This document shows positions 9,416 to 31,250 of a stretch of DNA of 32,000 nt, one piece after another. Both the position numbers and the translations under genes were made by a program. The stretch lies in assembly GCA_016700015.1 (NCBI GenBank), contig CP064995.1, forward strand, positions 420,001-452,000, written 5' to 3'. Origin of the DNA: Candidatus Saccharimonadota bacterium. GTDB lineage: Bacteria > Patescibacteriota > Saccharimonadia > Saccharimonadales > Saccharimonadaceae. Every line of letters begins with the position of its first letter. Positions within the stretch are counted from its first letter, which is position 1. The notes under the pieces were generated by a model. It did not search any database. It saw only the letters and a program-made list of their open reading frames with translations, and had not been told where the DNA came from.

Positions 9416-9443
9416 TTGACTTTCTCTCGCCAGGTGCTATAGT
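9416..9443 (+). promoter_or_regulatory. promoter of GC-rich cassette 1
   Basis: TTGACT (9416-9421), 16-nt spacer, TATAGT (9438-9443). Confidence 0.6.
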
Positions 9444-9481
9444 ATATTTTGTTCTATCCCGCACTAGCGAAAGGGAACACC

Positions 9482-10081
9482 ATGGCACCTGCCACGAACC
9501 CAAACAGCATCCGAGTTGAGATGCTGAGGGCTGGTATCGCCGAGGCGCAACGCCTGCGCGATAAAGCGCTCAGCGACAACCGAACCTGGCTGTTCTTCAA
9601 TCGGCGCGCGCAAGAGATGCAAGCCGAGCTGGATGTGCTTGAAACGCCCAAGACGGCGCAGCCATCCTTGGAGGAGCTGCTCACTGCGCTATATGGCTCT
9701 ACCGTTCCTCTTGCCGAACCCACCGACTGGGACGAGACATTCGAGCGGCTGTATGGCAGCGCCAGCGCCGCTTTTGAGCGCTTTCTCGACACGGCTGGTA
9801 AGCGCATGATGGAATTGACAGAGCAGCTTAACAGCCTTGGTGAAGTTGCCGCCGACAAGGCGACCGATGCCGCCGGGGCCGCACAGGAAGTGTTCGGTGA
9901 CGACATCGACGACCTGGCAAAGGCTCTCGAACAACTGCAGGCCACGGCCACCAGCCAGGCCGAGCGAGCGCTCGATGGTGCCTTGGCCCGCTTGGCAGGT
10001 ATCGCCAGTGGTCTGGCCGAGACGCGCGAGGCCTATCGTCAGCGCCGGGCTGAGCGCCAAGCTGGCAACCCCACGTCCTGA
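9482..10081 (+). CDS. hypothetical acidic, Ala/Glu/Leu-rich helical protein (199 aa)
   Basis: ATG 9482 lies behind RBS GAAAGGGA. Third codon positions are G/C-biased in this frame. There is no TM segment and no known motif. The overlapping ORFs in other frames are GC artefacts. Confidence 0.6.
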   Translation: MAPATNPNSIRVEMLRAGIAEAQRLRDKALSDNRTWLFFNRRAQEMQAELDVLETPKTAQPSLEELLTALYGSTVPLAEPTDWDETFERLYGSASAAFERFLDTAGKRMMELTEQLNSLGEVAADKATDAAGAAQEVFGDDIDDLAKALEQLQATATSQAERALDGALARLAGIASGLAETREAYRQRRAERQAGNPTS

Positions 10082-10089
10082 GCCAACAT

Positions 10090-10130
10090 GGCGGCATTGT
10101 GTAGTAACCCTACGCAATGCCGCCTTTTTT
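10090..10130 (+). terminator. intrinsic terminator of cassette 1
   Basis: An approximately 15-bp stem GGCGGCATTGTGTA/TACGCAATGCCGCC followed by TTTTTT. Confidence 0.85.
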
Positions 10131-10137
10131 CATTATC

Positions 10138-10170
10138 TAAAAAACACCCCCATGTATCACATGGAGGTGT
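10138..10170 (-). terminator. intrinsic terminator of the ABC exporter gene
   Basis: The minus strand reads ACACCTCCATGT-GAT-ACATGGGGGTGT followed by TTTTTT. Confidence 0.75.
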
Positions 10171-10194
10171 CACAGGAACGAGTCCCAACACTAC

Positions 10195-11985
10195 TTAAGC
10201 AACATGCTCACTGCCAACCTCAAGCGCATTCATGCGCCGATAGGTGTCGCTGGCGACAAGCAACTCGTCGTGACTTCCACTAGCGCTAATTGCGCCTTGC
10301 TCCATCACCACGATCTGATCGGCATTCCGCACTGTGCTAAGGCGGTGGGCAATGATAAACACCGTACACACTCGCCTAGCAATCAATTGGTCAAGCGTCT
10401 CTTGCACCTCGGCTTGGCTCATCGCATCGAGTGCGCTGGTAGCTTCGTCAAGAATGAGAATCGCTGGCTTCATGATCAGTGCCCGGGCAATCGCTAGGCG
10501 CTGCCGCTGGCCGCCACTCAGTGTCAAACCGTCTTCGCCAATGCGCGTGTCGTAACCACCGGGTAGCGCCTCAATAAACGCGTGAGCGCCGGCCGCTTTC
10601 GCAGCCGTCACTACTTCATCAAGTGAGGCATCCGGACGCGCGATGCGAATGTTGTCGGCAACCGACCGGTTAAACAGCTCGATTCGTTGGTTCACGGTGG
10701 CGATCATTTCGTTGCGATACCGGCCGTAGTCGATATTGCGTAGATCAATGCCATCGATCGTAACGCTGCCATCAAGCGGATCATGCTCGCGACCGAGCAA
10801 TCTCATGAGTGTACTTTTGCCACTACCACTTTCACCGACAAGCGCGAGTGACGTAAACGCCGGTACATTCAGCGACAGGCTACAGATGGTTGGAGTATCT
10901 GCCTGGTAGGCAAACGTCACCCGCTTAAACGACACCGCACCTTTCATGACGCGTGGCCATTGGGGCGCAAGGGTGTTTTGCACTGTTGGCGCCGTATTCA
11001 TGAACTGTAATAGTTCACGTAGTGCCTCTTGACCACGACTTAGCACGCGCTGAAAATCGCTAAGGCGCCAAAAGTTACTATACGAGCGTTCCATCCAGGT
11101 AGCGGCCAGCACTAGCGAACCGAGCTCAGGCGTGCCACCACTTTGCAGCGTAACCACGCCCATAAGGGCATACAGGGCACCGCGGCTTAGTAGCAATACA
11201 TCGTCTTGGACCGACAAACGCTTACTCCACGCACGGTGGCGGGGGTATTCGTCGTGCCAAAACGACCGCAGCAGTTCTTCGTTGTAGTCGGCGAAGTGCT
11301 CCTCCATACCGAGCGACCGAATGGTTTGCCAGTTCTTGGTGAGCTCGCTGCCGTTATCTTCTACCTGTCGCATACGAGTTTGAAATTCCTCGCGGTGCGG
11401 TCGCATGTGACGCTCGCTGCGGTAGAGTACCAGTCCGTAGACAAGCATTGTCGCCACACCAAGCACACCGAACTGCCAACCGATAAAGAACATGAAGATG
11501 GTCGTAAAACTGATGCGCAGCAACACCGGTATAGTGTTAAACAGCGCTTCATCAAACAGCTCCTGGAACCGCGTGACGTTTTTGCCAACCATCGACTCTT
11601 TTTCGCCTGTGCTATGACGTGTGTGCCAATCGGCACTTTGGCGGAGGAGTAGCCGGTTGCCATACCCCCACCAAACACGCCAACACCCCCAGAACACATC
11701 GTTGCGATGCAGTCCCATGCGATTAGCAAATAGCTGTCCCAGTTTGTAAAGTACGACGATGCTCACCGCGTAGGCGAACACACGGCCCAACCAGGCATCC
11801 TGACGACTGGTCAATTCGTTCATGATATACATCACGGGCAGAGCTTGGAGGACTTGAAACACTTCAGTCAGAAGCATCCAGGCAAACGTGCGCATGATAG
11901 CACGACGAACAACCGGTAACTCAGGGGCAATGGTAGGATCGGCTGCCATGGCGCGCAGTATTTGGCGCAAATGTGTAAGCAGCAT
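10195..11985 (-). CDS. ABC exporter, fused permease/ATPase (MsbA/multidrug type)
   Basis: Walker A GESGSGKST, signature LSGGQRQR, Walker B ILILDEATS, and an N-terminal 6-TM-like domain. The start is set at ATG 11985, behind AAGGAGG and 7 nt. Confidence 0.9.
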   Translation of the reverse strand: MLLTHLRQILRAMAADPTIAPELPVVRRAIMRTFAWMLLTEVFQVLQALPVMYIMNELTSRQDAWLGRVFAYAVSIVVLYKLGQLFANRMGLHRNDVFWGCWRVWWGYGNRLLLRQSADWHTRHSTGEKESMVGKNVTRFQELFDEALFNTIPVLLRISFTTIFMFFIGWQFGVLGVATMLVYGLVLYRSERHMRPHREEFQTRMRQVEDNGSELTKNWQTIRSLGMEEHFADYNEELLRSFWHDEYPRHRAWSKRLSVQDDVLLLSRGALYALMGVVTLQSGGTPELGSLVLAATWMERSYSNFWRLSDFQRVLSRGQEALRELLQFMNTAPTVQNTLAPQWPRVMKGAVSFKRVTFAYQADTPTICSLSLNVPAFTSLALVGESGSGKSTLMRLLGREHDPLDGSVTIDGIDLRNIDYGRYRNEMIATVNQRIELFNRSVADNIRIARPDASLDEVVTAAKAAGAHAFIEALPGGYDTRIGEDGLTLSGGQRQRLAIARALIMKPAILILDEATSALDAMSQAEVQETLDQLIARRVCTVFIIAHRLSTVRNADQIVVMEQGAISASGSHDELLVASDTYRRMNALEVGSEHVA

Positions 11986-12501
11986 AAACAAGCCTCCTTG
12001 TGTGAGTAGGGTTAGAGTAATGTTGGAGTGATCACCTGCGGGATTGCCGCAAACGACCACCTATGAGTTAAAGCTACTATCAATCTTGAAAATATCTTGA
12101 TATCGCCTGATATGACAGTAGGCGGGAGATGTTTGCAAGATAGAACGTACCTTACAAACAGGTATTACACTGCGCCCACTGTACCGAACATAATTGTCGC
12201 CATTACGAATTGTCCTTTCCATTAGAATTGATTGAAAATGCGCCATATCCCGCGTGGTGCGAGCCCCCAGCTTTATGGGGCGCCTGGCATAACTTGCATT
12301 ACATCCTGTAGTTACAGGGGTAATAACAACCGAATTTTGTATACGATTCTCCCGTGCCTATGATTTTGTTAGTGGCATTCGCTAGAGAACGTCGATGTTT
12401 TCCCCTATAAAACTACACGTGTTTGTGTGCAAGATATAACGCTCTTTCCATACTAGCACACTTTTTTACTTTTGTCAATAGGTAGAGTATAATCGAACCA
12501 C

Positions 12502-13569
12502 ATGCATCACTTCGACGCCCATGATCGCGCCACTATGGTGGCAGCCCGCAGCCAAATCCGTGACGCAATGAAGCCTATTGCGGCTGATATCGCCCACGGA
12601 GTGCCATCATTCGAGGGATTTGTTCTTTTCCAGCAAGATGTTTACCACACCGATAGCGCTGGCGCGCTGACACAAGTCAATAACCCCTATATACCTGCAG
12701 AGCGACTCAAGTTCCAGCAAGAACATATCGCCAATCGTCGCGTCGACCTACAGGTCTCAACACTCGGTCAAACATTCACAAATGGAGCGTATAGGCTGGA
12801 AGAAAGTGCTATGAACCCCAACCACCTCGTGGCAGGCATCCATATTCCAGAGCAGATAGGCAGTCGTGCTGCAAGTGTATTTCAACTCGCATTTACCAAA
12901 TCACTCAGCTCTCCAGCCCCTGATCAACTTGCTGCAATAGAGCAGTACTGGCGGCACATTGAGCCTCAGATCCTGCCATATCTGACCAAACTACATCACT
13001 ATGCCTCTCGTTACCCAAACTGTTCTGTTAGCGACGCGCTCTTGCTTGACACCCCTACCACCCCAAATGCCTTTGTTGTTGCCTGGGATACCTCTGGTTC
13101 ACGTCAAATTGCACATACACGCTACCCACAACTGCGTGATCACCTCACCCGGTCTGGCGCAATCTACCACCAGTTCGTCAAAGACTATGGTGGCCGCTTA
13201 CTGCGCCCAACTGGCGACGGTCAGGCGTTTGCCTTTGAAATTCCGTCGCCACAATACGATAGGCTCTCAGACGCCTCTATCGCTAAATTCGCTTATCGCA
13301 CTGTAGTACCAGCAATCAAACACATCCTATCTGCGACAAATAGTAGTCCGGCTGTACGTTTTGCGATTGGACTAGGCCGCATCGAGCACACCACCTTCGA
13401 CACCAGTAGTCCAGTACTATGGGAACTTGCCGATACCCTCGACAGCCTACCGCGTAATGAGCTAGTAGTCGGTTTCACCCCGCGCGTACTACAGTGCCTC
13501 GGCGTCACCGCGCAGGAACTCGACCGGCTTACATCTGAACATATTCAAGCGCGTATTATTTTGCCGTAG
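12502..13569 (+). CDS. hypothetical protein with degenerate class III nucleotidyl-cyclase-like C-terminal domain
   Basis: AFVVAWDTSGSRQIA, GGRLLRPTGDGQAFAF, VRFAIGLGRIE and VLWELADTLDSL align by eye to the cyclase blocks FxDIxGFT, GGxxxKxxGDxxMxxF, RIGIxxG and GDxVNxAxRLES. The N-terminal 190 aa are unknown. TATAAT lies 8 nt upstream of the ATG with no SD. Confidence 0.45.
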   Translation: MHHFDAHDRATMVAARSQIRDAMKPIAADIAHGVPSFEGFVLFQQDVYHTDSAGALTQVNNPYIPAERLKFQQEHIANRRVDLQVSTLGQTFTNGAYRLEESAMNPNHLVAGIHIPEQIGSRAASVFQLAFTKSLSSPAPDQLAAIEQYWRHIEPQILPYLTKLHHYASRYPNCSVSDALLLDTPTTPNAFVVAWDTSGSRQIAHTRYPQLRDHLTRSGAIYHQFVKDYGGRLLRPTGDGQAFAFEIPSPQYDRLSDASIAKFAYRTVVPAIKHILSATNSSPAVRFAIGLGRIEHTTFDTSSPVLWELADTLDSLPRNELVVGFTPRVLQCLGVTAQELDRLTSEHIQARIILP

Positions 13570-13590
13570 CACAATAGCTTAGCACAGTCA

Positions 13591-13679
13591 TTGATTATTT
13601 ATATATTATATGATATAATTATAATGATGCACGCGGTTTTCGCGTGTAGTTCCCCAACAATCCGAAAGCGAGGTATGGA
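13591..13679 (+). promoter_or_regulatory. promoter plus 5' UTR hairpin module (copy A)
   Basis: TTGATT (13591-13596), 17-nt spacer, TATAAT (13614-13619). Then hairpin CACGCG-GTTTT-CGCGTG (13630-13646), ACAATCCGAAAGCGAGG RBS and ATG 13680. Confidence 0.65.
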
Positions 13680-15035
13680 ATGCGAGTTCGCATTCTGGCA
13701 CTCCTGGCCACCCTGATGGTCGTCCTGTTCGTCCTGCCGTCGGCGGCACACGCCGCCGATTACTGGTCCGGCCCAGCGTCGGCCATCAAAGCCGGTAAGC
13801 ATGTCGTGGCCGACCCGAACCTCAAGCTCATCAGTGACGCCGATAAGGCTGCGCGTGAGCAGCAGGTAGTGGCGTCGGGACGCGCCATCTTCGCCGTCGT
13901 CATCGACGAGGCGCAGGTGAGCACCGACAAGTCCACCTGGCTCAGCGCCTTCCACAGCGCCGTCGGCAAAGACGGTCTGTACATAGTGCTCAGCAACAGG
14001 GGCGCGCTAGACGCTCGCGGCTTCAGCACGCCGAATGCGGTTACTAACGCTGCTCACCAGCTGGCCGTCAACACCGGTCAGAAGGTGCAGGCCAAAACCA
14101 TCTCCGACGTCAACGGCGCCCTGAACGACATGATCGCTCAGGCCACTGCGCTGGACTGGACCGTGATCAAGACCACGACTACGACATCCGGCGCGTCGAC
14201 CACATCGTCTTCCGGCAGCTCCCCATGGGGCTGGATCCTCGGCATTGCCGGGGTGCTCGGACTTGGTGGTGTGGTGGCATGGTTCATCGCCCGCGCCAAG
14301 CGCAAGCAGCGCGAGACAGAGGCAGCAGCTGAGAATGCTCGCTGTGAGGCGGAGCGCAGGTCTGCAGCGCCCACCTGGCCAGTACCGTCAAGCGCCCCAC
14401 AGGATGCGCCCGGGCCGTGGTCTTCCACGCCGTCCGCCAGCAGCCAGCCCACGCGCTTGGTCACGGTGGACAGCTTCCAAGACCGCGTAAACCATGGCGA
14501 CGACGTGAAGTTCCGACCGCGCTCCGGCTCGGGCGGCGAGACCATCGTCTACAACGCGTCGCCGACACACCGGTGCAACCACTACTACGGTGGCGGTCAG
14601 TGGGGCCCAGCCGGGTACTACAGTGACCCGTTCTGGACGTACATGGCCTGGAACCAGTTCGTGTGGCTGTATGGGGTCAACCCGTACTACCCGCACTACT
14701 GGGACAACGGCGGACACGATTACGACCGCAGCTATGCCGATGGGTCGCGCCATGCCGATTCGTCCCGGACCTCGTCCGGCTCAAACGTCACCACCGGTGG
14801 CGAAACTGAGCCGGTTGAGACCGAGAACGACTGGAGCTCCAGCTCTAGTGGGACTTCCACTGGGCAGGAAACTACGCCAGTCGAAACCGGCTCAAGTTGG
14901 GGCAGTAGTACCCCGTCGGCGCCCGACCCGACACCGAGCTACTCCGCGCCAGACCCATCCCCCAGCTACTCGGCACCAGTGGAAACAGGGTCAAGTTGGG
15001 GAAGCTCCGACTCCGGCAGCAGCTCGAGCTGGTAG
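13680..15035 (+). CDS. GC-rich signal-peptide/single-TM protein with Ser/Thr/Pro- and aromatic-rich C-terminal tail
   Basis: Signal peptide MRVRILALLATLMVVLFVLPSAAHA. An ectodomain of about 150 aa is followed by a poly-Thr/Ser linker, a TM segment (WGWILGIAGVLGLGGVVAWFIA) with RAKRKQR, and then a low-complexity tail. A hand-counted 60-nt sample is about 62 % GC. Confidence 0.7.
   Translation: MRVRILALLATLMVVLFVLPSAAHAADYWSGPASAIKAGKHVVADPNLKLISDADKAAREQQVVASGRAIFAVVIDEAQVSTDKSTWLSAFHSAVGKDGLYIVLSNRGALDARGFSTPNAVTNAAHQLAVNTGQKVQAKTISDVNGALNDMIAQATALDWTVIKTTTTTSGASTTSSSGSSPWGWILGIAGVLGLGGVVAWFIARAKRKQRETEAAAENARCEAERRSAAPTWPVPSSAPQDAPGPWSSTPSASSQPTRLVTVDSFQDRVNHGDDVKFRPRSGSGGETIVYNASPTHRCNHYYGGGQWGPAGYYSDPFWTYMAWNQFVWLYGVNPYYPHYWDNGGHDYDRSYADGSRHADSSRTSSGSNVTTGGETEPVETENDWSSSSSGTSTGQETTPVETGSSWGSSTPSAPDPTPSYSAPDPSPSYSAPVETGSSWGSSDSGSSSSW
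14811..15032 (+). repeat. in-frame degenerate tandem repeats (PVET-x-SW-SS, APDPxPSYS)
   Basis: PVETENDWSSSSSG, PVETGSSWGSSTPS and PVETGSSWGSSDSG, plus APDPTPSYS/APDPSPSYS. The corresponding DNA repeats start near 14811, 14877 and 14976. Confidence 0.8.
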
Positions 15036-15047
15036 CCTACCTACTAT

Positions 15048-15100
15048 GCGGAGAGCGCCGCGCCTACCCACAGCGGTAGCGCGCGGAGCTCCCCGCTTTT
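15048..15100 (+). terminator. intrinsic terminator
   Basis: Long GC hairpin GCGGAGAGCGCCGCGCCTAC...GTAGCGCGCGGAGCTCCCCGC followed by TTTT. Confidence 0.8.
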
Positions 15101-15108
15101 CATTTTGC

Positions 15109-15137
15109 TTGATTTTTGCATCATTCTACGCTATAAT
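15109..15137 (+). promoter_or_regulatory. rplK promoter
   Basis: TTGATT (15109-15114), 17-nt spacer, TATAAT (15132-15137). The leader contains a 9-bp AT hairpin ACTAAATAT/ATATTTAGT (15151-15178). Confidence 0.65.
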
Positions 15138-15200
15138 CGCATTGTTACGCACTAAATATGCTTCACCTTATATTTAGTAATCAAAAGGGAACTATTCACT

Positions 15201-15626
15201 ATGGCAAAACAAGTTATTGGTAACTTGAAACTACGCATACCCGCAGGCCGCGCCACCGCTGGTCCTCCAGTTGGTTCAACTCTTGGTCAGTGGGGGCTCA
15301 ACATGATGGATTTCATCAATCCATTCAATGAAGCAACCAAGGGCGACATGGGCAAAGACGTAATTGTACACATAAAAGTGTATGAAGACCGTACCTTCAC
15401 CTGGAAAAGCCTCGGTCAGCCAGTCGATGACATGATCCGTGCTGCCATTGGCATACAGAAGGGCAGTGGCAAGCCGCATGCCGAAAAAGTTGGCAAAATC
15501 ACTCGCGCGCAGCTCGAGGAAATTGCCAAGGCAAAGATGGACCAGCTCAACGCTATCGATATGGATGGCGCCGTGAAAGTTATCGCCGGCACTGCACGCA
15601 GTATGGGCGTCGAGGTAATCAACTAG
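15201..15626 (+). CDS. rplK: 50S ribosomal protein L11
   Basis: PAGRATAGPPVGSTLGQWGLNMMDFINPFN is the L11 N-terminal signature; 141 aa. Confidence 0.95.
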   Translation: MAKQVIGNLKLRIPAGRATAGPPVGSTLGQWGLNMMDFINPFNEATKGDMGKDVIVHIKVYEDRTFTWKSLGQPVDDMIRAAIGIQKGSGKPHAEKVGKITRAQLEEIAKAKMDQLNAIDMDGAVKVIAGTARSMGVEVIN

Positions 15627-15844
15627 TGAGCGTCGTCGCAGGCTGGCAGGACATGTCGCCGGGTACACACCACCCTCAAGCACGCGTTACAATGCTCGAG
15701 AACTATTTAGCCGAACATAGCGACAGCCTTGATCCGCTCGAAATCAAACGCCTTCAGGATCACCTCGCGCGCGCTACCGAAGCGCTCAGTACGCTTGATA
15801 GCGAGCGTGAAAGATACCTTGAGGGACTCCCACATACTGACTAG
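15626..15844 (+). CDS. small hypothetical helical protein (50-72 aa; start uncertain)
   Basis: GTG 15626 overlaps the rplK stop (TAGTG). Alternative starts are ATG 15653 and ATG 15692. A terminator follows. Confidence 0.35.
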   Translation: MSVVAGWQDMSPGTHHPQARVTMLENYLAEHSDSLDPLEIKRLQDHLARATEALSTLDSERERYLEGLPHTD

Positions 15845-15865
15845 AATAAGCAGCCTCACCACCAT

Positions 15866-15897
15866 AAACACCCCGTATGCGTATGGGGTGTTTATTT
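15866..15897 (+). terminator. intrinsic terminator
   Basis: AAACACCCC/GGGGTGTTT stem followed by ATTTG. Confidence 0.7.
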
Positions 15898-15921
15898 GAT
15901 CGTGCCTTATACTGGCTATGT

Positions 15922-15951
15922 TTGACACGCATAGTTGGTATGTAGTACAAT
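15922..15951 (+). promoter_or_regulatory. promoter of small GC-rich cassette
   Basis: TTGACA (15922-15927), 18-nt spacer, TACAAT (15946-15951). Confidence 0.55.
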
Positions 15952-15998
15952 TCACAGACTCGTCGCATACTCTTGCGGCACGTACCAAAGGGAGACAT

Positions 15999-16289
15999 AT
16001 GTCCCAGCCCAGTGTGAAAAAGCTCCGCCTGGCCCTAGACGGGCTCGAGGCAACGATGGCCGATCCGCTCTCGACGAGCGAACAGGTCAACGCGGCAGAA
16101 GCCGCAGTCACCCAACTGTTCGGCGACCTCGAGGTGTTGCTGGACGAGGCTCGCACACGTTTTACTGAGCTAATGGCTCAGGGTGCAGGCGATGAGCCCA
16201 GCAGCCGACTGGAGCGTCTACGCGCCTACCTGCATCAGTTGTTTGCAGTCGACGAACCTCTCGTCGTCTCGTCAAACGACGTCGGATAG
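15999..16289 (+). CDS. hypothetical acidic helical protein (96 aa)
   Basis: ATG 15999 lies behind AAAGGGAG. The track start at 15918 lies upstream of the promoter. No known motif. Confidence 0.5.
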   Translation: MSQPSVKKLRLALDGLEATMADPLSTSEQVNAAEAAVTQLFGDLEVLLDEARTRFTELMAQGAGDEPSSRLERLRAYLHQLFAVDEPLVVSSNDVG

Positions 16290-16297
16290 GTCGCATA

Positions 16298-16343
16298 CCC
16301 CCGCACACACCCACATCGGGTGAGCGCGGGGGATTTCCATTTT
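16298..16343 (+). terminator. intrinsic terminator
   Basis: CCCCCGC/GCGGGGG stem followed by ATTTCCATTTT. Confidence 0.65.
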
Positions 16344-16407
16344 GGTACGAAACAAAATAAAGAGGGTAGCTACATCATGAAATAGGGGTATAATACTGTT
16401 CAGGTAT

Positions 16408-16485
16408 CGGGGTGTGGCGCAGTCAGGCAAGCGCGCACCGTTCGGGACGGTGAGGTCGTGTGTTCAAATCACATCACCCCGACCA
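16408..16485 (+). tRNA. tRNA-Pro (anticodon CGG), CCA end encoded
   Basis: Hand-folded 78-nt cloverleaf. Acceptor CGGGGTG/CACCCCG, D stem GCGC/GCGC, anticodon loop TTCGGGA, T arm GTGTG-TTCAAAT-CACAT. TATAAT lies at 16389-16394. Confidence 0.9.
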
Positions 16486-16504
16486 AGTTATCGATTTTGA
16501 ATAC

Positions 16505-16581
16505 TTGATTGCTGTGCCATTTTGTGATATAGTACTACAAACGCGCGATCGCGCGTGTACCTACAATCGAAAGGGGCACCA
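16505..16581 (+). promoter_or_regulatory. promoter plus 5' UTR hairpin module (copy B)
   Basis: TTGATT (16505-16510), 17-nt spacer, TATAGT (16528-16533). Then palindrome ACGCGCGATCGCGCGT (16541-16556), ACAATCGAAAGGGG RBS and ATG 16582. Confidence 0.65.
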
Positions 16582-17226
16582 ATGCCCAGCAACGCTCAGA
16601 GCTTCAGCAAATCCCTGAAACAATCAGGGCAGCGCATCAGTACCCGACGTCTCGTCACGAGCATGTTCTCGATGACCATAGGGTTGGGTGTGCGCACCAC
16701 CAGTGCTCTGCGTGGAAGCGACGTGAACTACGTGAACAACAGCCGCCCGCTGACGCCCAGACGCCGCCTCGCCAATGGTGCGGCGCTGGCTTTCACCGCC
16801 AGCGCCATGGCAGCAAATGCCTACTGGCTCTTGCAGCGACGTGACCCGGGGGTTGCGGCCAAAGCTGGTCCGGAGTACGCCGACACTTCCACTCTCGTGG
16901 GGAATGTTGTCGGCTCCATGCTGACGCTTGGCCTTGGTGCTCGAGCGCTGACCAAGGGCACGTCCCTAGTCCGCAAATACCCGACCTCACGGGTCGGTAC
17001 GGCCATCACGACCATCGGTATGGTCAGTGCAGTAGACCTTGGTGTCGAAAGCGGCCGCGAGCTCTACCGGCGCCGCGAGACAATCATGCCGGGTATCAAG
17101 ACTCTGTGGAGCAACTTGGTTCCCGCCCAACCACAACTGTCGAACAAGGACATCGACAGGCTGCTCATGGAGTACTACAGCCGCAACGCGGCTCAAAACC
17201 CTGGCCCCCAGGATGCCAAGTTCTAG
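16582..17226 (+). CDS. GC-rich hypothetical protein, probably membrane-associated (214 aa)
   Basis: Weakly hydrophobic Ala/Gly-rich segments (GAALAFTASAMAANAYWLL, VGNVVGSMLTLGLGA, VGTAITTIGMVSAVDLGV). G/C-biased third positions. No known motif. Confidence 0.55.
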   Translation: MPSNAQSFSKSLKQSGQRISTRRLVTSMFSMTIGLGVRTTSALRGSDVNYVNNSRPLTPRRRLANGAALAFTASAMAANAYWLLQRRDPGVAAKAGPEYADTSTLVGNVVGSMLTLGLGARALTKGTSLVRKYPTSRVGTAITTIGMVSAVDLGVESGRELYRRRETIMPGIKTLWSNLVPAQPQLSNKDIDRLLMEYYSRNAAQNPGPQDAKF

Positions 17227-17236
17227 GGCCCCACTC

Positions 17237-17263
17237 CCCCCGTTCCGGACTTCGGAACGGGGG
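17237..17263 (+). terminator. hairpin terminator
   Basis: 11-bp stem CCCCCGTTCCG/CGGAACGGGGG. The T tract is weak (ATTCAATTTC). Confidence 0.6.
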
Positions 17264-17288
17264 ATTCAATTTCAGGTATACTAAACAC

Positions 17289-18188
17289 ATGTCGCATCGC
17301 GCACACAAGCACCAACAGTTTTCGTTTACACGGCGCCACTGGCCAGTATTGTTCGTGCTACCGCTTTTCGCCGCCGTATGTCTGCTTTTCTTGGCTTACA
17401 GCCATAATCAGCAGGTGAAGGCTGTCGCAAAACTCGAATCTGATCAAAGAGTTGCTTTTGCAAAAATTGATGCACAGGTGAAAGCAACACTTCAAAAACG
17501 AATTGATGATGCACATAGGGCAGAAGCCGAGGCAATCGCCCGCGCTAAAGCAGATGCAGCTACTCGTGCTGCGCAAACGACACCCAAAGTACCGCTGTCA
17601 TCAACAGCCAGCGCTACAAACTGCGCGATTAAAAATCCCGATTCGCTTCAGGTAGTGATCAACAAAAAGCATTGCTTTTCACCGCTTGAATGGTCGCCCC
17701 CTGACCTCATTGATGCCGGTGGAGCCCTGCTACGCGCCGAAGCCAGCCAACAATTCCAAGCGATGTCAGCGGCAGCTGCGGCGGCGGGACAAGGATTTGG
17801 TGTCAGCAGTAGTTATCGATCATACACCACCCAAATCACCACTTACAATTACTGGGTGAGCATTAGCGGCAGCGTGCAGGCCGATACGTATAGCGCACGC
17901 CCAGGCTATAGTGAGCATCAGTCGGGCCTCGCTATCGACGTCAAGGCTGGCAGCTGCGCTCTCAGCTGTTTCAATGGCAGCTCGCAGTACTATTGGCTCG
18001 CTGAGTATGCAGCTGACTATGGCTTTATCCAGCGCTATCCAGAGGGGCTCACAAGTATCACCGGCTACGAACCCGAGCCCTGGCACTGGCGCTACGTCGG
18101 CACGGCTGTCGCAAAAGATATGAAAACAAAGGGTATTCAGACACTTGAGCAGTACTACGGCATCACTGGCGGCGACTACGCAGGCTAG
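17289..18188 (+). CDS. VanY/M15B-type D-alanyl-D-alanine carboxypeptidase, membrane-anchored
   Basis: N-terminal TM (WPVLFVLPLFAAVCLLFLAY). The blocks SEHQSGLAIDV and EPWHWRYVG are the zinc-binding signature of the M15 family. The start is set at ATG 17289. The upstream part of the track ORF overlaps the previous gene. Confidence 0.8.
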   Translation: MSHRAHKHQQFSFTRRHWPVLFVLPLFAAVCLLFLAYSHNQQVKAVAKLESDQRVAFAKIDAQVKATLQKRIDDAHRAEAEAIARAKADAATRAAQTTPKVPLSSTASATNCAIKNPDSLQVVINKKHCFSPLEWSPPDLIDAGGALLRAEASQQFQAMSAAAAAAGQGFGVSSSYRSYTTQITTYNYWVSISGSVQADTYSARPGYSEHQSGLAIDVKAGSCALSCFNGSSQYYWLAEYAADYGFIQRYPEGLTSITGYEPEPWHWRYVGTAVAKDMKTKGIQTLEQYYGITGGDYAG

Positions 18189-19172: not shown

Positions 19173-19192
19173 CGCCGTACAGGACGAAGAAT

Positions 19193-21812: not shown

Positions 21813-21836
21813 TTTACTGAGAGATTATGTTCAGGC

Positions 21837-22316: not shown

Positions 22317-22343
22317 ACCTCCTTTACTCCTCCATTCCGTTTT

Positions 22344-23369
22344 GAATCAGGACACCCGATGCTAGACAATACACACCATGAAGAAAGCATCAAAGGTAAC
22401 GGATGCCGAGCGAAGCGAGATAGACATCCTCCATACCAAAGGCTATTCTGCACGGGCCATCGCCCGTGCATTGGGGCGCAGTCCCAATACCATTGCGACC
22501 GAGCTGCAACGCAATAGCCTCAAGGATGGGAGATACGTCGCTACCCACGCCAAACACAAAGCCTATGTACGGCGTAAGTATGCTCGCTACCAAGGCAAGA
22601 AGATTCAAGACAATGACGAGCTTCGCTCGTTCATCGTCCTGAAACTCTCTGAGCACTGGAATCCAGACGAGATAGCCGGCTATCTCAGAGCCAACTCAGC
22701 GCTTGGTATCTATGCCAGCAAGACGGCCATCTATGAATGGTTGCGCAGTGCCTGGGGACAACAGTACTGCCCGTTGCTGTACTCGAAGCGTTACCGCAAG
22801 AAACCACGCAGACAACTCAGGGCGGGTCACGTCATGATTCCCGACCGCACTTCCGTCACAGAGCGACCGCTGGTCGCTCTAGACCGAGCCGAGACCGGTC
22901 ACTGTGAATACGACAGCGTCGTGAGCAGCAAGCACCCAGGGAGCGCCTCTGCACTCGCTGTCCTTACCGAACGGTCTTCACGACTGGTACGAGCGAAGCT
23001 CGTACCTAACCTGAAGCCAGAGCCGTACGCACACACCATCTCGCGACTCGCGAGTGGGCTGGGGGTTCGCAGTATGACGACCGATAACGGCATCGAGAAC
23101 AGGCGCCACGCACTCGTCACTAATAAGACGGGCGCGCCCGTCTTCTTTACTGACCCCTATTCCTCTTGGCAAAAAGGCAGTGTCGAGAATGCCAACAAGA
23201 TGCTGCGTCGCTACTTCCCGAAGGGCACCGACTTTGCTACAGTGACACAAACGGATGTTGACAATGCGCTAGCACGCATTAACAACAAGCCGAGGAAGAT
23301 CCTCGGCTACAAAAGTTCATTACAAGTTGCAAAAGAGAAAGGATTAATTCTAGAGGGAGTGTCCTGATT
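22344..23369 (+). mobile_element. IS30-family insertion sequence (about 1.03 kb), apparently intact
   Basis: Terminal inverted repeats AATCAGGACAC (22344-22354) and GTGTCCTGATT (23359-23369), with a further imperfect match including CTAGA. They enclose a single transposase ORF whose stop lies inside the right IR. Confidence 0.8.
22378..23367 (+). CDS. IS30-family DDE transposase
   Basis: N-terminal HTH (ILHTKGYSARAIARALGRSPNTIATELQRN). DDE blocks GHCEYDSV, TTDNGIEN and GSVENANKMLRRYFPKG. Confidence 0.9.
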   Translation: MKKASKVTDAERSEIDILHTKGYSARAIARALGRSPNTIATELQRNSLKDGRYVATHAKHKAYVRRKYARYQGKKIQDNDELRSFIVLKLSEHWNPDEIAGYLRANSALGIYASKTAIYEWLRSAWGQQYCPLLYSKRYRKKPRRQLRAGHVMIPDRTSVTERPLVALDRAETGHCEYDSVVSSKHPGSASALAVLTERSSRLVRAKLVPNLKPEPYAHTISRLASGLGVRSMTTDNGIENRRHALVTNKTGAPVFFTDPYSSWQKGSVENANKMLRRYFPKGTDFATVTQTDVDNALARINNKPRKILGYKSSLQVAKEKGLILEGVS

Positions 23370-23450
23370 GGGGGGTGAATTTAGGACTACTAGTATAACC
23401 TTGTTATACAGCACGCTGGGTGGAGCTGTCAATGAATGTAGAAAGCCAGG

Positions 23451-24943: not shown

Positions 24944-25909
24944 ATGACGAAGCATTCCTATGAGACACAGTATCTTGATTTACTACGCAACATTCGCGAC
25001 AATGGCGATGACACAACCGACCGTACCGGCGTGGGCACGCGCGGTATTATGGGGGCACAAATGCGCTATGATCTGCGCGATGGATTTCCATTACTACAAA
25101 CGAAGCGAGTGCCACTTGGCGTAGTGGCAACAGAACTGTGCTGGATGCTGCAGGGACGAAGAGATTTGCGCTACCTCGTGGAGCGCAACTGTAACATTTG
25201 GAACGAATGGCCCTATGTCAACTATATGCGCGCTACCAGTCAAGCCCTGCCACCCCAAGACTCAGATGAGTGGAAGGGCAGCATGGCCGACTACATTGAG
25301 CGCGTCAAAACAGATGACGAGTTTTCTGAAGAATTCGGCGATCTTGGTCCGGTCTATGGCTACCAGTGGCGCCACTGGCCAGATGGATCGTTCAATGGTA
25401 TCGATCAGCTCGGCAGTGTGCAGGAGCAAATAAAACGAGGTTCTGATTCGCGTCGGCTCATCGTATCGGCTTGGAACCCTGCCGATATTGAAGAAATGGC
25501 AGTAGCCGGGCTGCCCCCGTGCCATATGATGTACCAGTTTAAGCGCTGGCCCGATGGCTCACTCGACATGGGGCTCTACCAGCGCAGCGCCGACATGTTC
25601 CTGGGTGTGCCGTTCAATATGGCGCAGTACGCGCTACTGCTCACCATGATGGCCGAAGTAACCGGCACCACACCGCGCTATTTTACGCATAGCTTTGGTG
25701 ACGCGCATATTTATACCAATCACTTTGATCAAGTTGAAGAACAGTTGTCGCGTGAGCCGCTACTCGCAACTCGTTTATTAAGTGGGGCACCGCGCATTGA
25801 ACTTAGCCCCTACGCCGACGCAAAAGATGTCGCTGATTTCGAGCCTTCAGACGTGACGGTGGATAAGTATTTTCCAATGAAGGCGATAAAGGCTCCTGTA
25901 GCGATATAG
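24944..25909 (+). CDS. thyA: thymidylate synthase ThyA (long form with insert)
   Basis: Blocks DRTGVGT, YGYQWRHW, PPCH, DAHIYTNH and C-terminal IKAPVAI. ATG 24944 lies behind AGGAGG. Confidence 0.95.
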   Translation: MTKHSYETQYLDLLRNIRDNGDDTTDRTGVGTRGIMGAQMRYDLRDGFPLLQTKRVPLGVVATELCWMLQGRRDLRYLVERNCNIWNEWPYVNYMRATSQALPPQDSDEWKGSMADYIERVKTDDEFSEEFGDLGPVYGYQWRHWPDGSFNGIDQLGSVQEQIKRGSDSRRLIVSAWNPADIEEMAVAGLPPCHMMYQFKRWPDGSLDMGLYQRSADMFLGVPFNMAQYALLLTMMAEVTGTTPRYFTHSFGDAHIYTNHFDQVEEQLSREPLLATRLLSGAPRIELSPYADAKDVADFEPSDVTVDKYFPMKAIKAPVAI

Positions 25910-26426
25910 TCGCTGGAGCAATCCGCTGATAGGTGACAAAATCCATAGGGTAGGCATTCAGCCCACGGCGAACAGGAAAGTACTCACGCTCGGTTTCGGC
26001 CCATTCGTCTGCTGGCAGCGCGGGGAAATGGGCATCACAATCTGGGAAATCCGCCGCGATCTCTGTCGCGTACAAGGTGTCGGTAAAGGGAAGCGCCGCG
26101 ATATACATCATTTGTCCGCCAATCACGATTGCCCGACGCTGCTGGTGCTCGGCGAGTTCGTAGGCCTGGCTGGGTGTTTCTACTACCGTCACACTCGGGC
26201 TATGCGAGAGGCGACGAGAACTAACAACAATATTTGTGCGCACATTGCTCGTGAGCGGAGCATCGAGTGATTCAAACGTTTTGCGCCCCATGATCAACGC
26301 CTTGCCAGACGTGAGGTTACGAAATCGCCGCATATCGGCAGACATTGTGCCATACGGCCACGGCAGGTGGTTGTGGCTACCAATTTCTCTACTACACCCA
26401 TAGGCAACAATCATTTCGTGTGTCAT
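25803..26426 (-). CDS. folA: dihydrofolate reductase with about 37-aa C-terminal tail
   Basis: EMIVAYGCSREIGSHNHLPW...FRNLTSGKALIMGRKTFESL is the DHFR signature. The start is uncertain (26426, 26414 or 26441). The 3' end overlaps thyA. Confidence 0.85.
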   Translation of the reverse strand: MTHEMIVAYGCSREIGSHNHLPWPYGTMSADMRRFRNLTSGKALIMGRKTFESLDAPLTSNVRTNIVVSSRRLSHSPSVTVVETPSQAYELAEHQQRRAIVIGGQMMYIAALPFTDTLYATEIAADFPDCDAHFPALPADEWAETEREYFPVRRGLNAYPMDFVTYQRIAPATISLQEPLSPSLENTYPPSRLKARNQRHLLRRRRG

Positions 26427-26494
26427 AGCGTATGCTATCATACTACCATCTTGAAAAATATGACAGATTACTGATGTAAAATTGTACGCCACGC

Positions 26495-29124: not shown

Positions 29125-29328
29125 TTGAAAATAATGAGGCTAGCTGCTATACTCCATTGTAGACATTACCAAAGACAGTAGCGGGCCAGTGTGCCGATAA
29201 GAATGCTACCGAGGGAATTACACTTTTTCCATGGTCTTTGGTGAGCGCCAAAGATTTTTTGTTGCTCACCATATGTCGAAACTTAACAATGTGGTCGAAT
29301 ACCAAATCAAAGTAAAGGAACTCTATCT
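29125..29328 (+). promoter_or_regulatory. rplJ promoter and L10-leader-like attenuator
   Basis: TTGAAA (29125-29130), 17-nt spacer, TATACT (29148-29153). ACCAAAGAC (29168-29176) can pair with GTCTTTGGT (29234-29242). Alternatively, TCTTTGG (29235-29241) pairs with CCAAAGA (29248-29254), followed by TTTTTT (29255-29260). Confidence 0.65.
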
Positions 29329-29853
29329 ATGGCTATTAGCAAAGATAAGAAACAAGCTTTGGTCGGTGAACTAAGCGAGCTATTCGCAAACGCAAAAGGC
29401 ACGGCTGTTGCAAAGTACCAGGGTATCAGCGTCGCTGATCTGCAGGCACTGCGCAAAAGCGCCCGCGAGGCTGGTGTGACAATTAAAGTTGTCAAGAACC
29501 GCCTAGTGCGCGTTGCAATGGGCGACAATGCTACCTACAAAGGCGCATCTACCGATGCACTTGTGGGTCAGCTGCTCTACGCATTTAGCGATAGCGATGA
29601 AGTCATGCCAGCAAAGGTGCTGAACGACTTTGCCAAAACCCATCCCGAGCTCAGTCTTGTGGCGGGCTTCAGTGGCGAAGGCGTCACGCAGTCTGCTGCC
29701 GATGTCACCGCGCTTGCTGGCTTGCCAAGCAAGAACCAGCTTATCGCCGAAGTGGTGGCGCAATTGCTTTCACCAGTTCACGATGTCACCAATGCACTCT
29801 CTGGCAACCTCCATGCGTTGCTCGACGGTGTCGAAGCCAAAGCTGCAGCGTAA
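29329..29853 (+). CDS. rplJ: 50S ribosomal protein L10
   Basis: 174 aa. The sequence KQALVGELSELFANAKGTAVAKYQGISVADLQALRKSAREAGVTIKVVKN is L10-typical. Confidence 0.95.
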   Translation: MAISKDKKQALVGELSELFANAKGTAVAKYQGISVADLQALRKSAREAGVTIKVVKNRLVRVAMGDNATYKGASTDALVGQLLYAFSDSDEVMPAKVLNDFAKTHPELSLVAGFSGEGVTQSAADVTALAGLPSKNQLIAEVVAQLLSPVHDVTNALSGNLHALLDGVEAKAAA

Positions 29854-29868
29854 GCTGCAAACATCATT

Positions 29869-29883
29869 CACCCCCTAAAGCCG
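29869..29883 (+). repeat. 15-mer CACCCCCTAAAGCCG, copy 1 (after rplJ)
   Basis: Exact 15-mer, followed by hairpin CGGTA-CCCG-TACCG, CGTTG and TACGGCGGG. Confidence 0.8.
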
Positions 29884-29956
29884 GTACCCGTACCGTTGCC
29901 TACGGCGGGCTGGACAATTCATCAATCGATAACTATCCCATGAAAGGACACTTGAC

Positions 29957-30337
29957 ATGGCAGACGTAAAGAAACTTGCAGAAGAGCTTACAAAGCTTAC
30001 TGTACTTGAAGTAAACGAACTAAAGAACGTCCTCAAAGACGAATACGGCATTGAGCCAGCTGCTGCTGCAGTTGCTGTTGCTGCCGGCCCAGCTGCTGAC
30101 GCTGGCGCTGCAGCTGCAGACGAAAAAACTGAATTCACCGTCAACCTGAAAGACGGTGGGGCACAAAAAGTTGCCGTCATCAAAGCAGTTAAAGAAATCA
30201 CCGGCCTTGGCCTTGGTGAGGCAAAAGCACTAGTCGACAACGTACCAAGTGTTATTCTTGAAAAAGCCAGCAAAGACGACGCCGAAAACGCCAAGAAGCT
30301 TCTTGAAGAAGCTGGCGCAGCTGTCGAGCTCGCGTAG
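29957..30337 (+). CDS. rplL: 50S ribosomal protein L7/L12
   Basis: 126 aa. Ala-rich hinge and C-terminal domain [24 protein letters not shown]. Confidence 0.95.
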
Positions 30338-30347
30338 TAAGTTATAC

Positions 30348-30362
30348 CACCCCCTAAAGCCG
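30348..30362 (+). repeat. 15-mer CACCCCCTAAAGCCG, copy 2 (after rplL)
   Basis: Exact 15-mer, followed by hairpin CGATGC-TAC-GCATCG, CGTTG and TACGGGGCG. Confidence 0.8.
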
Positions 30363-30476
30363 ATGCTACGCATCGTTGTACTTTACGGGGCGACCACATT
30401 TGTTGATGCAATAGCCACTCTGTAGTGATACGGGGTGGTTTTGTATTGTGGGGTAGTCTCAGGTAGGTCAAAATGC

Positions 30477-30505
30477 TTGACTTTTTATGATTGTCGTGCT
30501 ATAAT
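30477..30505 (+). promoter_or_regulatory. consensus promoter of the GC-rich cassette after rplL
   Basis: TTGACT (30477-30482), 17-nt spacer, TATAAT (30500-30505). Confidence 0.7.
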
Positions 30506-30544
30506 GGTATATAGTAAGCCATAATCCATCTAGTAAGGAGCACC

Positions 30545-31192
30545 GTGGCTCGTACCAGCACAGCCCGTCGTCCGCAGTCGCCGAAGAGCATCGCTGTCGT
30601 CCGCCATCGTGCGGCCGCCAACCGCGCCGCGTTCATGGCGAAGATCGTGGTGTTCGACGAGCACGGCAACCTTGTCGAAGACAGCTCACACCCGAAGGCG
30701 GGTGTGAAGTACGACAAGTGGCGCAAGCAGGGCCGGGCAGAGAAGCGCGCCCGGCGCCAGGACCAGATGGCCGTCTTCACCCTCGCTGAGGGCGTGGCGG
30801 ACACGGTCGACTGGCGCCCGCCGCGGGCGTATCGCAACTCGCTCACTTCCCGTGAGCGGTTCCGCATCGCCAAGTGGGAGCGCGAAGCGCGCCGCCGCGA
30901 GGCAGAGTGGTGTCGGCAGGACGCCGAGATGCTCGCCGCCATGGACAAGGCGATGGCCTTTGTCGAAGACAAGGAGCCCATCGCCCCAGTCGCCCCCGAG
31001 CGCAACTTCGGCCTGGCAATGCGCCAGCGAGCCGAGCACGAACGGCATGCATGGACACCCCGGCCCGACAGGCCGCGAGTCGTGCTGCCGCCGCACCTGC
31101 GGGTGCCGGAGGACGAAGAGCGCCGCGTCACCGGCTACCGCGGTGGGCGAACTCGCCACCAGCAGGCTCGGCTCACCTCGGGCGCCTTCTAG
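30545..31192 (+). CDS. very GC-rich, Arg-rich hypothetical protein (215 aa)
   Basis: GTG 30545 lies behind TAAGGAG. Third positions are almost all G/C in this frame only. A hand-counted 60-nt sample is about 68 % GC. The four overlapping ORFs in other frames are GC artefacts. Confidence 0.6.
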   Translation: MARTSTARRPQSPKSIAVVRHRAAANRAAFMAKIVVFDEHGNLVEDSSHPKAGVKYDKWRKQGRAEKRARRQDQMAVFTLAEGVADTVDWRPPRAYRNSLTSRERFRIAKWEREARRREAEWCRQDAEMLAAMDKAMAFVEDKEPIAPVAPERNFGLAMRQRAEHERHAWTPRPDRPRVVLPPHLRVPEDEERRVTGYRGGRTRHQQARLTSGAF

Positions 31193-31201
31193 GCGCCACT
31201 A

Positions 31202-31250
31202 CGGCCCGACCGTTCCTTTCCCTACAGGGATTGGAGCGGCCGGGTCGTTT
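31202..31250 (+). terminator. hairpin terminator
   Basis: CGGCCCGACCGTTCC pairs with GGAGCGGCCGGGTCG (15 positions, with two GU pairs and one mismatch), followed by TTT. Confidence 0.5.

Follow-up and report, generated by a model that had tools for sequence, protein, structure and literature searches.

Candidate clade-restricted orphan genes of high GC content in the gaps between nusG, rplK, rplA and rplL of a Saccharibacteria genome

Bacterial orphan genes (ORFans) are confined to a narrow clade, short, fast-evolving, patchily distributed between conserved genes and without an assigned function, and usually they are AT-rich relative to their genome. In Saccharibacteria, obligate epibionts with tiny genomes, the determinants of host range are thought to reside mostly in function-unassigned genes. 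Here, we describe eight open reading frames (ORFs) on a contiguous stretch of 32,000 nucleotides from a Candidatus Saccharimonadota genome (GenBank assembly GCA_016700015.1, contig CP064995.1, positions 420,001 to 452,000), referred to as the window in the following. The ORFs, designated by their first nucleotide in the window (9482, 13680, 15626, 15999, 16582, 19294, 19739 and 30545; Table 1), display the orphan-gene features listed above. Unlike typical AT-rich bacterial orphans, however, they are GC-rich at synonymous sites, with the exception of 15626, and the excess is kept by their orthologues. The GC richness is real and heritable, and there is no sign of recent capture from a host. We consider it probable that the eight ORFs are independent, clade-restricted orphan genes in variable gaps between secE-nusG, rplK, rplA and rplJ-rplL and do not form one system, because their ages differ and they share no similarity with each other. 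For the same reasons, we abandon the single undescribed system proposed in the initial annotation of this DNA. No description of a split rplKAJL cluster or of GC-rich orphan genes in Saccharibacteria was found in the literature.

Several other described arrangements come close to the one reported here. Like integron cassettes, the ORFs form a series of short, unrelated, function-unassigned genes in one orientation, but they differ from cassettes in having their own promoter and terminator per gene and core genes in between. Neither attC-like repeats nor an integron integrase were found, the window having no direct repeats of at least 30 nt and no tyrosine recombinase among its ORFs, no dedicated attC model having been run. 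In common with the tRNA-adjacent sites of integrative and conjugative elements (ICEs), one slot has the 3′ end of tRNA-Pro(CGG) as its exact starting point and content varies between invariant core genes, whereas the slots here, unlike ICE islands, hold one to four single genes, mostly inherited vertically in the genus. With variable surface-protein loci, 13680 and 9482 share allele divergence with sharp break points and raised synonymous divergence (dS). In contrast to such loci, 13680 shows no sign of positive selection (ratio of nonsynonymous to synonymous divergence, dN/dS, of 0.2-0.44 in every domain), 9482 has no export signal, and silent cassettes, repeats or a diversity-generating retroelement are missing; a search for the latter revealed neither a repeat pair nor a reverse transcriptase among the window ORFs. 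Deviant composition and codon usage, finally, are features of horizontally acquired islands that are shared by seven of the eight ORFs.

For each ORF, the GC content at third codon positions (GC3) was compared with the GC3 expected from the amino acids of its protein under core-gene codon usage, and the departure was expressed as z (Table 1). Core genes had a GC content of 0.48-0.55, a GC3 of 0.40-0.60 and z from −3.3 to 2.3 (nusG: GC 0.48, GC3 0.56), and the GC3 of the highly expressed ribosomal-protein genes ranged from 0.40 to 0.56. Seven of the eight ORFs were GC-rich (GC 0.56-0.70, GC3 0.67-0.84), with the excess located at synonymous sites and GC3 departing from the expected value by z 3-10. 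The six ORFs originally singled out as GC-rich with G/C-dominated third positions (9482, 13680, 15999, 16582, 19294 and 30545) indeed had GC contents of 0.61-0.70 and GC3 of 0.69-0.84, and the GC contents counted by hand (62 % at 13680, 68 % at 30545, 48 % in nusG) were close to the computed 0.64, 0.70 and 0.48. As to the two ORFs thought to be less clearly GC-rich, 19739 proved to be shifted (z 4.1) and 15626 did not (z 0.3). The codon preferences of the GC-rich ORFs followed a GC-shifted native pattern, in which CGC, GGC and AGC were still the top codons. In five of the eight products, Ala, Arg, Gly and Pro together made up a fraction of 0.32-0.44, compared to 0.22-0.32 in core genes. Five minus-strand genes without a domain (7520, 18185, 21837, 23451 and 28017) had z below 0 and were not GC-rich.

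The identity of ribosomal protein L1 to that of the window served as a distance scale for relatives (L177/L085, 96 %; L178, 93 %; L179, 84 %). ORFs 9482, 15626, 15999, 19294 and 19739 are shared with congeners, 30545 belongs to a wider family of six members, and 13680 and 16582 are species-specific, being absent from L177/L085, L178 and L179. All orthologues in L177/L085 and L178 lie at the same junctions as in the window. That of 9482, located after nusG, is 89 % identical in L177 and 72 % in L178, and the corresponding values are 74 and 57 % for 15999, 77 and 75 % for 19739, and 66 and 53 % for 15626, whose overlap with rplK is retained in both relatives. The orthologue of 19294 is 64 % identical in L177/L085 and 82 % over 72 amino acids in L178. 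The GC excess is kept, with a GC3 of 0.69 and 0.70 for 9482, 0.82 (L177) and 0.79 (L178) for 15999 and 0.71 for 19294, and likewise in 19739. L179 is without these five ORFs and without an orthologue of 9482 after nusG; seven other orphans with a GC3 of 0.72-0.87 occupy the same slots there. A set of 160 further Saccharibacteria loci, each centred on rplK, contained no homologue of any of the eight ORFs, and there is no paralogy among the eight. The comparison of identical junctions proposed in the initial annotation hence revealed a gap content that changes between relatives. Universal orthologues, which had been named there as speaking against a foreign origin, were encountered in part: six of the eight ORFs are syntenic in congeners, and 13680 and 16582 are restricted to the species.

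In 5.8 billion proteins, 30545 had a single relative, of 50 % identity; when 1.84 billion representatives were searched exhaustively with an HMMER profile, the 30545 family was delimited to six proteins, all from Saccharibacteria. All six genes are positioned downstream of rplL and directly upstream of a conserved gene for a 171-amino-acid protein. Its members have in common MARTT at the N-terminus, a central part rich in Arg and a LPPHLRVPEDEE motif at the C-terminus, and the annotated frame alone is open in all four copies checked. GC content (0.65-0.70) and GC3 (0.79-0.89) are high in all six members, with flanks of approximately 0.50-0.55 GC. In four of five comparisons the flanking core genes had a dS of 1.1-2.3, implying that synonymous sites turned over while the family stayed GC-rich. 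This persistence of GC3 is at odds with an unameliorated recent import. In locus L181, sulfur-related genes (Pyr_redox_2, DsrC and DrsE_2; 632-2931) are inserted between rplL and the gene of the 30545 family.

On comparative evidence, the GC-rich ORFs are real protein-coding genes. Substitution ratios place the six ORFs with a measurable dN/dS under purifying selection (0.16-0.67). In comparison with strain L083, which is 96.9 % identical to the window, dN/dS was 0.26 for 9482 and 0.31 for 13680; in comparison with congeners it was 0.28-0.43 for 9482, about 0.25 for 15999 and 0.29 for 19294 (L177/L085). ORF 19739 was the most constrained of the set (0.16-0.22), and 30545, with a dN/dS of 0.67, contains two well-conserved blocks with synonymous changes inside. 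GC-rich DNA leaves several frames open, with three to five uninterrupted over more than 90 codons in the GC-rich segments, but among them the annotated one alone is open in every orthologue. In L178, the public gene call at 13029-13364 is a shadow ORF antisense to the 19294 orthologue, whose conserved frame lies on the plus strand at 13032-13247; wrong-strand annotation is a risk for GC-rich orphan genes.

ORFs 9482 and 13680 are the main divergence hot spots between otherwise near-identical strains, 13680 being the strongest. Differences between the window and L083 peak at 9500-10100 (8-34 % per 100 bp) and 13500-14897 (5-37 %); a single difference is found in the 7.4 kb from 14897 to 22326, and nucleotide divergence in neighbouring genes is 0-3 %. 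The 9482 and 13680 proteins differ by 18-19 % between the strains, those of neighbouring genes are 98-100 % identical, and dS reaches 0.43 in 9482 and 0.35 in 13680 compared to at most 0.22 (at least 1.6-fold less) in the other genes compared. Moreover, the L083 allele of 9482 is more divergent than the orthologue of the more distant L177, and the 9482 gene tree disagrees with the genome tree. The pattern looks like old alleles swapped by recombination in conserved flanks and not like positive selection. The predicted topology of the 13680 product begins with a signal peptide (residues 1-25, AHA/AD cleavage site) and an ectodomain (26-165); a Thr/Ser linker leads to a transmembrane segment (182-206), followed by a conserved Trp/Tyr-rich cytoplasmic block and C-terminal Ser/Thr/Gly repeats, the number of which differs between strains. 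No relative of 13680 was found among solved structures. Assignment to the TPM domain (PF04536), considered because TPM-domain membrane proteins resemble 13680 in layout (signal peptide, ectodomain, transmembrane segment and a Gly/Ser tail that terminates in Trp), was rejected on account of the missing structural relative and the lack of a Pfam hit up to E 0.1. For the 9482 product, Pfam yielded only a sub-threshold apolipoprotein-like match.

Among the eight ORFs, only 16582 adjoins a tRNA gene. The tRNA-Pro(CGG) gene is conserved at this position in L177, L179, L015 and L020, and the sequence on its 3′ side differs in every relative, diverging straight after the tRNA 3′ end. L177, L178, L179 and L015 lack 16582 and have other cargo or none, ranging from four genes in L177 to nothing in L015. 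The NCBI annotation of 16582 is a shorter version of 139 amino acids. In L020 (CAURWV010000002.1), an 8-kb island (10707-18750) with a GC content of 0.62-0.75 begins exactly at the tRNA-Pro(CGG) 3′ end, just after rplK. It codes for a large serine recombinase, a Replic_Relax protein, a type-IV coupling protein, an MT-A70 methyltransferase and a tyrosine integrase, and the best matches of the coupling protein in the plasmid database are from Embleya and Streptomyces (33-37 %). In a check for chimerism, the far flank of the L020 contig matched no other locus. Unless this contig is chimeric, its gene content indicates that actinobacterial-type high-GC mobile DNA reaches the tRNA-Pro slot in a Saccharibacteria metagenome-assembled genome (MAG). 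Elements of the pSAM2 type from actinomycetes integrate into a tRNA-Pro gene. In view of the L020 element at the same site, a foreign high-GC origin of the ORFs is possible. Copies of the tRNA-Pro 3′ end, sought as att repeats in the window and in L020, L177 and L179, were not found, and in the window no integrase, relaxase or att repeat was found alongside the GC-rich ORFs and no mobility gene is adjacent to them. An origin of the ORFs in foreign DNA read in another frame was rejected: the tblastx alignment of 13680 with the L020 recombinase region (38.6 bits) contains stops, and codon-shuffled controls reached 33.6 bits. One strain assembly, L171, carries a 60-nt insertion within the T-arm of tRNA-Pro(CGG) (about 10648-10707, corresponding to window position 16464), which could be intron-like, a small mobile element or an assembly error.

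Each ORF had been portrayed in the initial annotation as a self-contained cassette behind its own AT-rich −35/−10 pair and ending in its own GC hairpin terminator. Promoter-like sites of this kind are present at five of the six clearly GC-rich ORFs; 19294 has a −10-like element with a weak −35 region only, and no promoter of its own was found for 15626, the GTG start of which overlaps the rplK stop codon by one base. A hairpin with a T-run does follow all six clearly GC-rich ORFs (three detected by scan, three by eye). However, equally good promoter-like sites precede secE, 12502, rplK, rplA and rplJ, and rplK, rplA, rplJ and rplL share with the GC-rich ORFs a ribosome-binding site of the GAAAGGGA type. 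Because native genes are equally equipped, the one-gene-one-promoter layout is a property of the region and not a mark of the GC-rich genes, and promoters and ribosome-binding sites of native type are no indication of domesticated foreign genes. The start codons of 12502 and of the minus-strand genes 23451 and 28017 (at 12502, 24332 and 29069, respectively) lie 7-9 nt past a TATAAT box, so that their mRNAs look leaderless.

Searches for families and relatives yielded little. Pfam, NCBIfam and PHROGs contained no significant family match for the eight ORFs, in line with the expectation of products without an enzyme motif, and ten alternative-frame ORFs were equally devoid of Pfam domains. The earlier description of the products as secreted, membrane-bound or charged helical proteins was roughly right: 13680 and 19294 have predicted transmembrane segments, the 9482, 15626 and 15999 products are acidic with a predicted helical structure, and those of 16582 and 30545 are basic. 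An anti-phage defence system was considered and rejected, as none of the five ORFs scanned with PADLOC (9482, 13680, 16582, 19739 and 30545) matched a family; the only match, of 18 bits, covered the linker and transmembrane segment of 13680. A phage or plasmid origin was rejected as well: GenBank phages and PLSDB plasmids, against which two ORFs were tested, produced no hits, and neither did IMG/VR viral contigs. The suggested comparison with Actinobacteria and other taxa brought up no donor for 13680 and 30545 in large protein collections.

Recent horizontal transfer from high-GC Actinobacteria hosts or mobile elements, delivering host-derived or host-mimicking factors that came under native promoters, would account for a synonymous GC3 excess in genes of a kind that is usually AT-rich, and for the restriction of 13680 and 16582 to one species. 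It would also suit the location of 16582 directly 3′ of tRNA-Pro(CGG), where L020 has its high-GC island of the conjugative type. Furthermore, Saccharibacteria are naturally competent (PMC11665869). Against such an import, which the initial annotation had favoured, stand the lack of any homologue of 13680 and 30545 outside a narrow Saccharibacteria clade in protein searches, with no hits in phage, plasmid and viral collections or in PHROGs and no donor in sight, the inheritance among congeners of six of the eight ORFs, each at an unchanged junction, and the persistent GC3 of the 30545 family despite flank dS above 1 in four of five comparisons. Codon preferences are native-like and merely GC-shifted, with CGC, GGC and AGC on top, no mobility gene lies beside any ORF, and the IS30 element of the window is separate from them. 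On balance, we regard recent transfer as unlikely. Old native genes without any foreign contribution, whose GC content is held by selection on amino-acid or codon composition (Ala/Arg/Gly/Pro-rich products, mRNA properties) or by GC-biased conversion, would agree with the 30545 family and its GC3 of 0.79-0.89 at flank dS of 1.1-2.3, with the same excess in orthologues of 9482, 15999, 19294 and 19739, with the Ala+Arg+Gly+Pro fraction of 0.32-0.44 in five products, with native-like codon preferences and with the apparent break points of recombination at which the two ORFs that vary most are located. Amino-acid content is no explanation, however, as the GC3 test already conditions on amino acids. 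Published effects of GC-biased conversion in bacteria amount to a few percentage points only, not to 15-30. The GC3 of ribosomal-protein genes (0.40-0.56) shows that ordinary translational selection points in the opposite direction, and two ORFs are species-specific. A purely native origin is somewhat unlikely as well.

The ORFs might also have arisen de novo in GC-rich DNA such as decayed high-GC elements, where stop codons are rare and long ORFs could be taken into use as soon as they acquire a promoter and a ribosome-binding site. The multiple open frames, products that are charged, of low complexity or predicted to be disordered and devoid of domains, fast evolution (dN/dS up to 0.67), the lack of homologues of 13680 and 30545 beyond the clade in protein searches and the landing of high-GC mobile DNA in these slots (L020) are compatible with this scenario. 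It is weakened by alternative-frame ORFs without Pfam domains and by a six-frame comparison with the L020 island that amounted to compositional noise (38.6 versus 33.6 bits in shuffled controls). In addition, 13680 and 19739 look like ordered multi-domain proteins with a dN/dS of 0.2-0.4, and the 30545 family is old; we deem an origin of this kind very doubtful. Lastly, the ORFs could be artefacts, either spurious frames in non-coding GC-rich DNA or the result of a chimeric MAG with a high-GC contaminant. GC-rich DNA does produce shadow ORFs, and the gene caller chose the antisense frame of the 19294 orthologue in L178. Chimeric assembly is ruled out, however, because the same gene arrangement, identical or nearly so, recurs in ten or more assemblies that are independent and stem from different samples. 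Native genes border the segments, which have AT-rich native promoters on either side, a dN/dS below 1 goes along with synonymous substitutions within peptide blocks that are conserved, and the annotated frame alone is conserved as open. An artefact is extremely improbable.

The preferred interpretation of the eight ORFs as independent orphan genes has to be balanced against several points that weigh against it. The exhaustive protein search covers 30545 only; 9482, 15626, 15999, 16582, 19294 and 19739 were checked in family libraries and local loci, three of them also in viral contigs. In the case of 13680, the sole homologue in 5.8 billion proteins was a strain allele (81 %), in a search that scored the 8000 candidates sharing most words with the query and in which remote ectodomain relatives may have been displaced by candidates matching the low-complexity tail. 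AlphaFold2 models from single sequences had a pLDDT of 47 for residues 1-207 of 13680, unusable for fold comparison, and of 39 for 19739. In favour of the interpretation, GC richness went along with the lack of a known domain: across seven clade loci, a GC3 of at least 0.68 was recorded for 28 of the 72 genes lacking a Pfam domain and for 1 of the 77 possessing one (Mann-Whitney p = 4e-7), although this test counts orthologues from several genomes, so that its data points are not independent. Polarised substitutions among the window, L083 and L177 were more often GC-to-AT than AT-to-GC in nusG, ABC and 9482, with small counts and with a polarisation that is unreliable as the 9482 gene tree is discordant with the genome tree.

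If the ORFs are independent orphans, the conserved flanking genes would supply homology for the exchange of alleles and cargo in a naturally competent lineage, and the 3′ end of tRNA-Pro(CGG) would add a site-specific integration point. GC richness would then mark a class of young, fast-evolving genes. The excess might come from the DNA of origin (high-GC mobile or host DNA) or from a persistent force (codon selection or GC-biased gene conversion), which would be required at least for the family downstream of rplL. Each gene would be transcribed singly from a native promoter, 15626 instead being translationally coupled to rplK. The products are predicted to comprise a type-I membrane protein whose ectodomain varies, a second, small membrane protein and a set of small proteins of acidic or basic character; activity at the cell envelope, or as small accessory factors, is most likely for these products. 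Participation in the host interface is plausible, if conjectural. A more far-reaching proposal is that high GC3 marks an actively maintained class of orphans, fed by actinobacterial host or mobile DNA through competence and the tRNA-Pro site and recruited as envelope or host-interface proteins, or else held by selection; we judge it rather improbable.

Table 1. Features of the window, with base composition of the eight ORFs (eye and scan denote how terminators were recognized)
Feature	Position	Strand	GC	GC3	z	Remarks
tRNA-Trp	2497-2572					
secE	8444-8809	+				from translation; just upstream of nusG
nusG	8816-9364	+				from translation; conserved left anchor of variable gap 1; 93-99 % identity in relatives
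Promoter of 9482	9416-9443	+				sigma-70-like; TTGACT-16-TATAGT, with TG
ORF 9482	9482-10081	+	0.63	0.69	4.7	199 aa, acidic, predicted helical, no signal peptide; GC-rich orphan
Terminator of 9482	10090-10124	+				scan; hairpin with 15-bp stem, then T-run
Promoter of 13680	13591-13619	+				sigma-70-like; TTGATT-17-TATAAT, with TG
ORF 13680	13680-15035	+	0.64	0.78	10.0	451 aa; species-specific GC-rich orphan; predicted type-I membrane protein
Terminator of 13680	15050-15106	+				eye; GC hairpin and T-run, not picked up by scan
rplK (L11)	15201-15626	+				from translation; conserved anchor between gaps 1 and 2
ORF 15626	15626-15844	+	0.56	0.58	0.3	72 aa, acidic, predicted helical; GTG on last base of rplK stop
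Promoter of 15999	15922-15951	+				sigma-70-like; TTGACA-18-TACAAT
ORF 15999	15999-16289	+	0.61	0.69	3.0	96 aa, acidic, predicted helical; GC-rich orphan
Terminator of 15999	16298-16344	+				eye; GC hairpin and T-run
tRNA-Pro(CGG)	16408-16485	+				immediate 3′ sequence is an insertion hot spot
Promoter of 16582	16505-16533	+				sigma-70-like; TTGATT-17-TATAGT, with TG
ORF 16582	16582-17226	+	0.61	0.73	5.2	214 aa, basic (pI 10.9); species-specific GC-rich orphan; cargo of tRNA-Pro hot spot
Hairpin of 16582	17237-17263	+				scan; 12-bp stem, weak T tail
VanY gene	17289-18188					neutral anchor for fetching graded relatives
−10-like element of 19294	19253-19258	+				TATAAT; weak −35 only
ORF 19294	19294-19584	+	0.66	0.72	3.2	96 aa; predicted N-terminal transmembrane segment, basic tail; GC-rich orphan
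Terminator of 19294	19596-19629	+				scan
ORF 19739	19739-20578	+	0.56	0.67	4.1	279 aa, soluble; moderately GC-rich orphan
rplA (L1)	20725-21729	+				from translation; conserved anchor between gaps 2 and 3
L10 leader	29151-29269					just upstream of rplJ
rplJ (L10)	29329-29853	+				from translation; rplJ-rplL block 29329-30337
rplL (L7/L12)	29957-30337	+				from translation
Promoter of 30545	30477-30505	+				sigma-70-like; TTGACT-17-TATAAT, with TG
ORF 30545	30545-31192	+	0.70	0.84	8.9	215 aa, Arg-rich, pI 11; most GC-rich orphan
Terminator of 30545	~31203-31259	+				eye; hairpin and T-run
Gene for 171-aa protein	31428-31943	+				right anchor of 30545 slot; 88-98 % identical in relatives; without Pfam domain

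The proteins encoded in the window are identical to QQS22372-QQS22397 of a complete 1,011,181-bp Candidatus Saccharibacteria MAG, and almost all of the 80 best rplK relatives from reference genomes bear the label Saccharibacteria or Saccharimonadales. The GC content of the whole window is 0.516. Other genes, spanning 5.8, 5.1 and 7.6 kb, interrupt the usually contiguous ribosomal-protein cluster in the window, and in about 160 Saccharibacteria loci the nusG-rplK, rplK-rplA and rplA-rplJ gaps measure between approximately 50 bp and 8.7 kb. The majority of the Saccharibacteria loci examined have the series secE-nusG-rplK-rplA-rplJ-rplL (window 8429-30337; L001-L165) split on the kilobase scale, and in most the rplK-rplA gap exceeds 1 kb. 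Presumably, the split cluster uncouples the co-regulation of rplK and rplA by L1. Between rplA and rplJ, a thyA-folA-dcd-tmk group is frequent in Saccharibacteria loci; thyA (plus strand) and folA (minus strand) converge, their 3′ ends sharing about 107 nt (window 24944-26441), an overlap also seen in L085. The same gap houses a GC-rich gene (0.58-0.64) in L126 (9622-11406), L127 (14294-15223) and L042 (15852-17276), the genomes of which have a GC content of 0.43-0.50. According to a Pfam scan, the genes of L126 and L042 code for secreted proteins with a bacterial Ig (Big_8) domain, accompanied by acidic repeats in L126, and that of L127 has a similar appearance. Of 120 loci, about half contain GC-rich islands.

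Further features of the window concern genes other than the eight ORFs. A 79-amino-acid protein without a Pfam domain (18933-19172) is 95-97 % identical in congeners and 50-77 % in remoter relatives; together with the 171-amino-acid protein (31428-31943), it is encoded by a function-unassigned gene highly conserved across Saccharibacteria. Between a histidine kinase gene and secE, a 907-bp segment (7491-8397) constitutes a further variable slot. It contains ORF 7520-8341 (minus strand, 273 amino acids, no domain, not GC-rich), is missing from strain L083 and has a 41 % homologue at the same position in L178. An insertion sequence of the IS30 family (22327-23388; transposase 22378-23367) carries inverted AATCAGGACAC close to both ends. 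Strain L083, otherwise 97-99.9 % identical, has an empty site, which identifies the element as a strain-specific insertion unrelated to the GC-rich ORFs.

In summary, orphans with an excess of GC instead of AT, whose GC3 has been retained over long divergence, form an unusual pattern, and our analysis ties this compositional oddity to clade-restricted genes in hot spots of gene turnover. The claim of a recent gene capture from host to epibiont is removed as unsupported. What remains is a short, testable list, namely the strain-variable predicted membrane protein 13680 and the Arg-rich family downstream of rplL. If a GC3-marked class of orphans were to be confirmed, base composition would become a genome-readable marker of the gene set by which an epibiont interacts with its host.

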